64,000 bases of DNA, from the sequence record LR746311, one strand, 5' to 3'. The stretch is from Shigella phage vB_SsoM_113. Shown piece after piece: positions 62,471 to 63,257 of the stretch. The position numbers were made by a program, and so were the translations under genes. Numbering within the stretch: the first letter of the stretch is position 1; the number at the start of each line of letters is the position of its first letter. The notes beneath the pieces are model-generated. The model made no database searches and was not told the origin of the DNA. It was given only the letters and a program-made list of their open reading frames with translations.

Positions 62471-63054
62471 TGATTAAATTGGTATTCGCTTATTCTCCAA
62501 CTAAAACGGTCGAAGGCTTTAATGAATTAGCATTCGGTTTAGGTGATGGTTTACCATGGGGACGAGTTAAAAAGGACCTCCAGAATTTTAAAGCTCGTAC
62601 TGAAGGCACAATTATGATTATGGGTGCTAAAACGTTCCAGTCATTGCCTACATTACTTCCAGGTCGTAGTCATGTGGTGGTATGTGATATTAAACGCGGC
62701 TATCCTGAAACTAAAGATGGTGATTTGGCTCATTTTTATATTACCTGGGATGAGTATGTTACCTTGGTAGCCGGTGGACGTATCCAATTATCCAGTCCTA
62801 ATACAAATTTTGAAACGTTTATCGATTCCAGCGAAAATCGCATCAGTGTAATTGGCGGTCCTGCTCTGTTATATGCTGCATTACCTTATGCAGATGAAGT
62901 AGTTGTTTCTCGTATCGTTAAAAGGCATCGTGTTAATTCAACGGTTCAATTAGATGCAAGTTTTCTTGATGATATAAGCAAACGTGAAATGGTTGAAAGT
63001 CATTGGTATAAAATAGATGAAGTAACAACCCTTACGGAATCAGTGTATAAATGA
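62470..63054 (+). CDS. frd: dihydrofolate reductase (Frd)
   Basis: 194 aa; DHFR N-terminal fold motif MIKLVFAY ... LPW. Confidence 0.93.
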
Positions 63055-63257
63055 GCAATAAATTAAAAGTTAAGGATGTTCCTAATGCTATGGCCCTTTT
63101 TATTTGTCGGCAGATGCATCAAGGGCGTATGACACCAAAACAGTATCTTAAAGGTGAGCGTTCTTTAGGATTTACTCGCAAAGCAAAACAAATGGTTAAA
63201 TTAGGATATAAGCCTAACTTTGCCAAATATCCTTCTACATATTCTTGGATGAACTAA
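63051..63257 (+). CDS. small basic protein (68 aa) inserted between frd and td
   Basis: ATGA-coupled to frd, TAATG-coupled to td. Confidence 0.5.

Follow-up and report, generated by a model that had tools for sequence, protein, structure and literature searches.

The 68-amino-acid (aa) open reading frame (ORF) described here lies between frd and td in a 64,000-nucleotide (nt) stretch of DNA from Shigella phage vB_SsoM_113 (LR746311), referred to below as the window. The window is Tequatrovirus DNA (best match 97.6% identical over 20 kb), and the genes and features around the junction are collected in Table 1. The ORF is placed as the original prediction had it, with overlapping codons on both sides: its ATG (63051–63053) overlaps the frd stop codon TGA (63052–63054) in an ATGA at 63051–63054, and its TAA (63255–63257) has one base in common with the td ATG (63257–63259) in a TAATG at 63255–63259, for which reason td starts at 63257 and not at 63258.

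Table 1. Coordinates of features at and upstream of the frd–td junction in the window.
Feature	Position	Strand	Evidence or remark
frd.2 homologue	60916–61296		FRD2
97-aa ORF	61265–61558		No Pfam match; absent at this position in T4
frd.1 homologue	61559–61858		DUF5417
119-aa ORF	61869–62228		DUF7247; absent at this position in T4
85-aa ORF	62213–62470		No Pfam match; overlaps frd start; absent at this position in T4
frd (dihydrofolate reductase), 194 aa	62470–63054	+	PF00186 DHFR_1, E = 1.8e-18
Left copy of AATGA direct repeat, 5 nt	63050–63054	+	Holds frd stop codon and ORF start codon
68-aa basic accessory ORF, PHROG 9550	63051–63257	+	ATG-initiated ORF, profile match, dN/dS
Dhakavirus-type tract in Tequatrovirus background (ORF and td nt 1–48)	63051–63304	+	Segment identities
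Right copy of AATGA direct repeat	63256–63260	+	Holds td start codon
td (thymidylate synthase), 5' part	63257–64000	+	Annotation in close relatives; gene exceeds window end

The ORF sits in the frd-td-nrdA string without a promoter or terminator of its own. A scan of 62900–63400 gave no sigma-70-like promoter and no terminator at or within it, and no strong Shine–Dalgarno sequence could be read ahead of the start codon of either the ORF or td. It has the layout of a coupled gene of the frd-td operon, overlapping both neighbours on the same strand with no promoter or terminator between them, and on this layout it is probably coupled in translation to frd and td. The intrinsic terminator nearest to the ORF is a strong terminator-like hairpin at 60520–60538 (GGGGACC...GGTCCCC and then a run of T); it stands upstream of the frd.2-like gene and is presumably the terminator after gene 32. 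The frd/ORF junction at 63044–63051 reads TATAAATG, a sequence that also stands ahead of td in T4; it agrees at 7 of 8 bases with TATAAATA, which we take to be the T4 late-promoter consensus, and marks a candidate promoter. The only Rfam match, to beta_tmRNA at 62952–63121, was dismissed as chance (16.8 bits, the gathering threshold being 84; E = 0.016). Folding revealed no unusual RNA structure in the ORF region (z-score +0.54), and an RNA element was rejected. The family hidden Markov model found no paralogue of the ORF elsewhere in the window.

Direct coupling of frd to td in T4, which the original prediction had stated, is what the T4 record displays: in NC_000866 (complementary strand) frd ends at 145109 and td starts at 145112, the two genes overlapping by 4 nt (ATGA) with no gene between them. 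Alignment to T4 reveals a clean insertion of 206 bp in the window (63055–63260) with the direct repeat AATGA at both edges, and this repeat is the stop/start overlap motif itself. The T4 junction is thus not identical and the ORF is truly extra relative to T4, as the original prediction had it. The insert has no long direct or inverted repeats and no terminal inverted repeats, its sole flanking repeat being the 5-nt AATGA; a transposable or site-specific mobile element was rejected because terminal inverted repeats are lacking, the product is not recombinase-like and the repeat is the overlap motif.

The ORF is almost certainly a genuine protein-coding gene, to judge from its homologues and their divergence. 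Using tblastn, homologues were found in 237 phage records, of which 134 were at least 90% identical (Tequatrovirus and Dhakavirus), 31 were 60–80% identical (Klebsiella Marfavirus and T4-like phages of Serratia and Enterobacter) and 72 were less than 60% identical (Phapecoctavirus, family Stephanstirmvirinae); phage IME341 encodes a 100% identical protein. Pairwise dN/dS was 0.14–0.18 in comparisons with the Marfavirus (Potts1) and Serratia (4S) copies, which are 62–78% identical and for which dS is near or at saturation. Together, the 237 records and these ratios rule out a chance reading frame and bear out the earlier proposal of a real accessory gene. Purifying selection acts on the complete protein of 68–77 aa, and the invariant or nearly invariant positions of the family are K4, K6, V7, P11, L16, R20, Q24, K34, G35, G40, M48, G52, Y53, P55 and Y60. 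A profile search of 5.8 billion proteins returned 42 clusters (90% identity), all of 42–125 aa and nearly all matched over their full length, among which there were no Pfam domains, domain fusions or new relatives. Across 1.84 billion representatives, exhaustive searching with phmmer gave seven matches, six of them small phage proteins that are real relatives; the remaining one, P0041 (418 aa), is a protein of tandem repeats and unrelated.

The gene itself is not new. It matches PHROG 9550, a family of unknown function, with residues 1–68 on profile positions 1–68 of 68 (E = 5.5e-45, 152.5 bits), and over 100 T4-like genomes in GenBank, which are most of the records carrying it, list it as a ‘hypothetical protein’, so its existence was already known. 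The same gene occupies the same position in phages pSs-1 (YP_009111049.1) and fFiEco06 (YP_010069255.1), with proteins 98.5–100% identical and no assigned function. Of two things that might have told against the original prediction, a junction shared with T4 and an ORF already known as a conserved gene, the former was not found and the latter was, in the form of these annotations and PHROG 9550. A literature search found nothing specific on the gene or on an insert at the frd-td junction. What we add is the purifying selection, the conserved linkage to td and the exact mosaic structure, which points to recent transfer between genera through the stop/start motif. Two copies had been left without annotation. 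In JS10 (NC_012741.1), the 200-bp ‘gap’ between frd and td in RefSeq is an intact copy of the ORF (4001–4207 of the compared stretch; 98.5% protein identity). The copy in SH7 (NC_054942.1; 2452–2660 of the compared stretch) is frameshifted by one extra A in an A-run, ACCAAAACAG having become ACCAAAAAAAA, and represents either a pseudogene or a homopolymer sequencing error.

The insert was present in 135 of 569 phage records that matched the 501-bp junction (~24%). T4, T2 and RB27 are without it, and the genus Dhakavirus is polymorphic, JS10 having the ORF and PSD2002 and UGJNEcP3 a direct ATGA overlap of frd and td. Since most relatives lack the ORF, it is, by this comparison, dispensable. In every ORF-carrying Straboviridae lineage examined, td follows the ORF directly, the stop codon of the ORF overlapping the td start codon, irrespective of what stands upstream. 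In Tequatrovirus and Dhakavirus this is frd, whereas Potts1, Serratia phage 4S and two T4-like contigs of metagenomic origin have unrelated ORFs of 111–126 aa there. Homologues away from td and frd are ~43–50% identical and occur in Phapecoctavirus and in metagenomic phages: that of phAPEC8 (Phapecoctavirus) is found within a run of small hypothetical genes, and those of three metagenomic phages have helicase genes (PIF1-like and DnaB-like) or other small ORFs as neighbours. Because these homologues sit among small early or replication genes, the role of the ORF is probably not td-specific, and the link to nucleotide metabolism that the original prediction implied from the operon is weakened accordingly.

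Identities segment by segment differ along the junction, and on these grounds we are highly confident that the window allele is a mosaic of Tequatrovirus frd, the ORF with ~48 nt of Dhakavirus-type td, and Tequatrovirus td. The whole of frd is 99.5% identical in nucleotide sequence to that of pSs-1, 88.4% to that of T4 and 78.9% to that of JS10, and the last 6–50 nt of frd match Dhakavirus at 35 of 44 positions and T4 at 43 of 44. The ORF, absent from T4, is identical to that of Dhakavirus JS10 at 203 of 207 nt (98.1%). Nucleotides 1–48 of td match three Dhakaviruses, two of them without the ORF, at 46–47 of 48 positions and T4 at 41 of 48, whereas td nt 100–540 are ~72–80% identical to Dhakavirus and ~95% to T4 (77.8% to JS10 for the td 5' part up to the window end). 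The left joint lies inside the common hexamer AAATGA and the right joint between td nt ~48 and ~100. All four ORF-carrying Tequatroviruses sampled have the Dhakavirus-type td 5' end, and none of three ORF-less Tequatroviruses does.

On the simplest reading of this pattern, the tract would have come recently from a Dhakavirus in a mixed infection, with the right crossover in conserved td sequence and the left joint in the 6-nt microhomology AAATGA. A handful of genomes suggests the direction from Dhakavirus to Tequatrovirus; alternatively, a third party may have been the donor, with AATGA-mediated deletion following in some Dhakaviruses. The same AATGA repeats would allow precise loss of the gene. 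Recombination or slippage within AATGA would add or remove the gene while both neighbours stay coupled, since a joint within the overlapping stop/start motif preserves translational coupling on either side. The junction is a clear illustration, provided by nature, of the gain and loss of one gene in T4-like genomes with the operon left undisturbed. It leaves frd-td biology as known in T4 unchanged.

Several known systems resemble this arrangement in part. The small ORFs of the T4 gene 32-frd-td-nrdA cluster (frd.1/DUF5417, frd.2/FRD2, frd.3, nrdA.1 and nrdA.2) are likewise small and dispensable-looking, are packed with overlapping stop and start codons and vary between T4-like phages; however, they share no sequence similarity with the 68-aa ORF, a gene that T4 lacks. 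PeSL cassettes, described for RB49/phi1, have a strong sigma-70-like promoter and a stem-loop terminator at their boundaries and recombine through these motifs (Arbiol et al. 2010, PMC2839356). The likeness is the gain, loss or exchange of one small ORFan among close T4-type phages; unlike PeSL cassettes, the 68-aa ORF has no promoter, terminator or long repeat at its boundaries. Its left joint is the 5–6-nt overlap motif AATGA, and its right joint is homologous td sequence. A PeSL cassette was accordingly rejected (no such promoter or terminator at 62900–63400, no long repeats). The genes segG and mobE and the td intron with I-TevI are also optional inserts between or within conserved genes of this region, but the 68-aa product has no nuclease motif or nuclease homology and the ORF is independent of the td intron.

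This independence is seen in both directions. Among ORF-carrying phages, pSs-1 is without the intron and I-TevI and fFiEco06 has them; among ORF-less phages, T4 has the intron and T2 does not. The window td is intronless at the site of the T4 group I intron (I-TevI), between 63805 and 63806; T4 diverges into the intron after td nt 549, where the window reads on in the exon. Hitch-hiking on the td intron or I-TevI was rejected as the explanation of this allele, as all four combinations exist and the imported tract stops ~500 nt before the intron site. The flanks of that site differ from the T4 exon junction at several bases, the window reading ...TTTTCCTCGGT|CTTCCATTTAAT and T4 exon 1 ending in ...TTTTCTTGGGT. 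In two further ORF-carrying phages, UPWr_E2 (PP418986.1) and 235Ecol030PP (PP355091.1), a 950-nt query spans ~1245–1270 nt in two pieces; the implied td insert is ~320 bp, compared with 1016 nt for the T4 intron, and may be an intron without an ORF.

The product is rich in lysine and arginine, as had been noted (10 Lys and 4 Arg versus 1 Asp and 1 Glu), with a pI of 10.4 and a net charge of ~+11.6. An AlphaFold2 model predicts a small three-helix bundle (pLDDT 76.6; helices 13–24, 29–38 and 43–49). In this model, the layout of a helix, a glycine turn and a basic helix gives the impression, and it is an impression only, of a helix-turn-helix; structural and profile comparisons found no similarity to helix-turn-helix or other nucleic-acid-binding folds. 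The PDB returned nothing by family profile and no fold relatives. Searches of Pfam with the product and 28 family members gave only scattered chance matches, and those of NCBIfam and PADLOC (the latter holding defence proteins only) gave nothing beyond one chance NCBIfam match (E = 0.16). A similarity to Cas9 HNH domains in a single-sequence phmmer search (E ~0.3) had domain i-E-values of at least 38, disappeared with the family profile and was set aside as chance. Nucleic-acid binding, which the original prediction had suggested alongside a regulatory role, is plausible from charge alone, and the conserved Lys/Arg residues include K4, K6, R20 and K34. Small basic early DNA-binding proteins of T4 such as MotB (PMC7827196) offer a possible functional analogy only, as early, basic and non-essential proteins that might bind nucleic acids without specificity; no homology to them was detected for the 68-aa protein, whose DNA binding is putative.

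We regard a coupled, laterally exchanged accessory gene with a polyanion-binding product as the best overall explanation, and hold it tentatively. Translation of the ORF would probably proceed by termination–reinitiation: ribosomes finishing frd would start on the ORF at the initiation region that T4 uses for td, and would then be handed on to td. Its 8-kDa, +11-charged, three-helix product, made early in infection, might bind a polyanion, likeliest DNA or RNA, an activity that we put forward with some reserve from charge and that would modulate a host or phage nucleic-acid transaction. The DHFR and thymidylate synthase enzymes would not be its targets, since homologues in other phage families are unlinked to those genes. 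A small basic protein could equally bind an acidic host protein, and the invariable linkage to td in Straboviridae could point to a function connected with td instead of simple co-inheritance.

The acidic-target reading extends to a counter-defence or host-takeover effector that would inhibit a host protein conserved in Enterobacteriaceae, such as a defence component, and not act on nucleic acid; this is the main rival, and we think it rather unlikely. It is consistent with the patchy occurrence of the ORF (~24% of Tequatrovirus-like records), with presence/absence polymorphism within two genera, with the apparent recent transfer between genera and the spread of the family over unrelated lytic phages of enterobacteria, and with the location of the gene in early gene clusters. 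Phage accessory genes that take part in host-specific conflicts typically have a patchy, mobile pattern of this kind, and an effector fits it as well as nucleic-acid binding does. However, no similarity to characterized anti-defence proteins emerged from the libraries searched, of which PADLOC (again, defence proteins only) gave no match, and the extreme positive charge is no less suited to nucleic-acid binding. A td-linked function, in which the protein would assist or regulate thymidylate synthase or the phage dNTP-synthesizing complex or would control translation of td mRNA, appears improbable: although the ORF stands directly 5' of td with overlapping codons in each Straboviridae lineage examined and the transferred tract takes in the td 5' end, about three quarters of Tequatroviruses, including T4, run the same pathway without it, the homologues in Phapecoctavirus and other phages are not beside td or frd, and co-inheritance of an overlapping gene pair gives equally tight linkage.

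Two further readings are very improbable. One is that only translation of the insert matters, carrying ribosomes from frd to td, and that the peptide is functionless; the perfect stop/start overlaps on both sides and the lack of a strong Shine–Dalgarno sequence at either start codon are what it would lead one to expect, but it is at odds with the strong purifying selection on the amino acids (dN/dS ~0.15), with conservation of the family in contexts without frd or td and with a T4 frd-td coupling that works without any bridge. The other derives the ORF from a free-standing homing endonuclease with a former target in the frd-td region, of which it would be a degenerate remnant or a DNA-binding fragment. 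Free-standing homing endonuclease genes spread laterally and carry flanking sequence along, T-even phages have such genes between conserved genes (segG and mobE in T4), and the ORF is polymorphic in presence with co-transfer of adjacent td sequence; the weak Cas9 HNH matches could be added to these points, but they vanish with the family profile as described above. Against a remnant there are also the lack of any Pfam nuclease or NUMOD match, the absence of a longer homologue with a nuclease domain among the 42 clusters and the selection on the complete 68–77-aa protein, and a free-standing HNH or GIY-YIG homing endonuclease was rejected for want of a catalytic motif or a match to nuclease or NUMOD models.

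A bolder reading that we consider unlikely, though worth stating, is that the protein founds a new fold family of ~70-aa basic early proteins held in common, through lateral exchange, by unrelated lytic phages of Enterobacteriaceae (Straboviridae, Phapecoctavirus and others). If true, the family would have a specific, as yet undescribed activity, for example neutralization of a host defence that is based on nucleic acid or senses it, or remodelling of an RNA or of the host nucleoid, and the selective advantage of that activity would have driven its repeated lateral spread. As a small, conserved, laterally exchanged gene without fold relatives, the ORF is a reasonable candidate for host-takeover or counter-defence screens in therapeutic T4-like phages. 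Its practical value is modest; it is an ordinary accessory ORFan of T4-like phages.

The surroundings of td vary in other ways within Tequatrovirus. In T2 (PV648363.1) and RB27 (positions 1–410 of the compared stretches), frd is not directly upstream of td; a 115-aa hypothetical gene and a 45-nt spacer stand there, the spacer containing a sigma-70-like TTGATT-17 nt-TATAAT, and this layout is a third type of td-upstream junction in the genus. Between gene 32 and frd, the window (61265–62470) contains ORFs that T4 does not have at this position (Table 1), and this stretch is hyperplastic.
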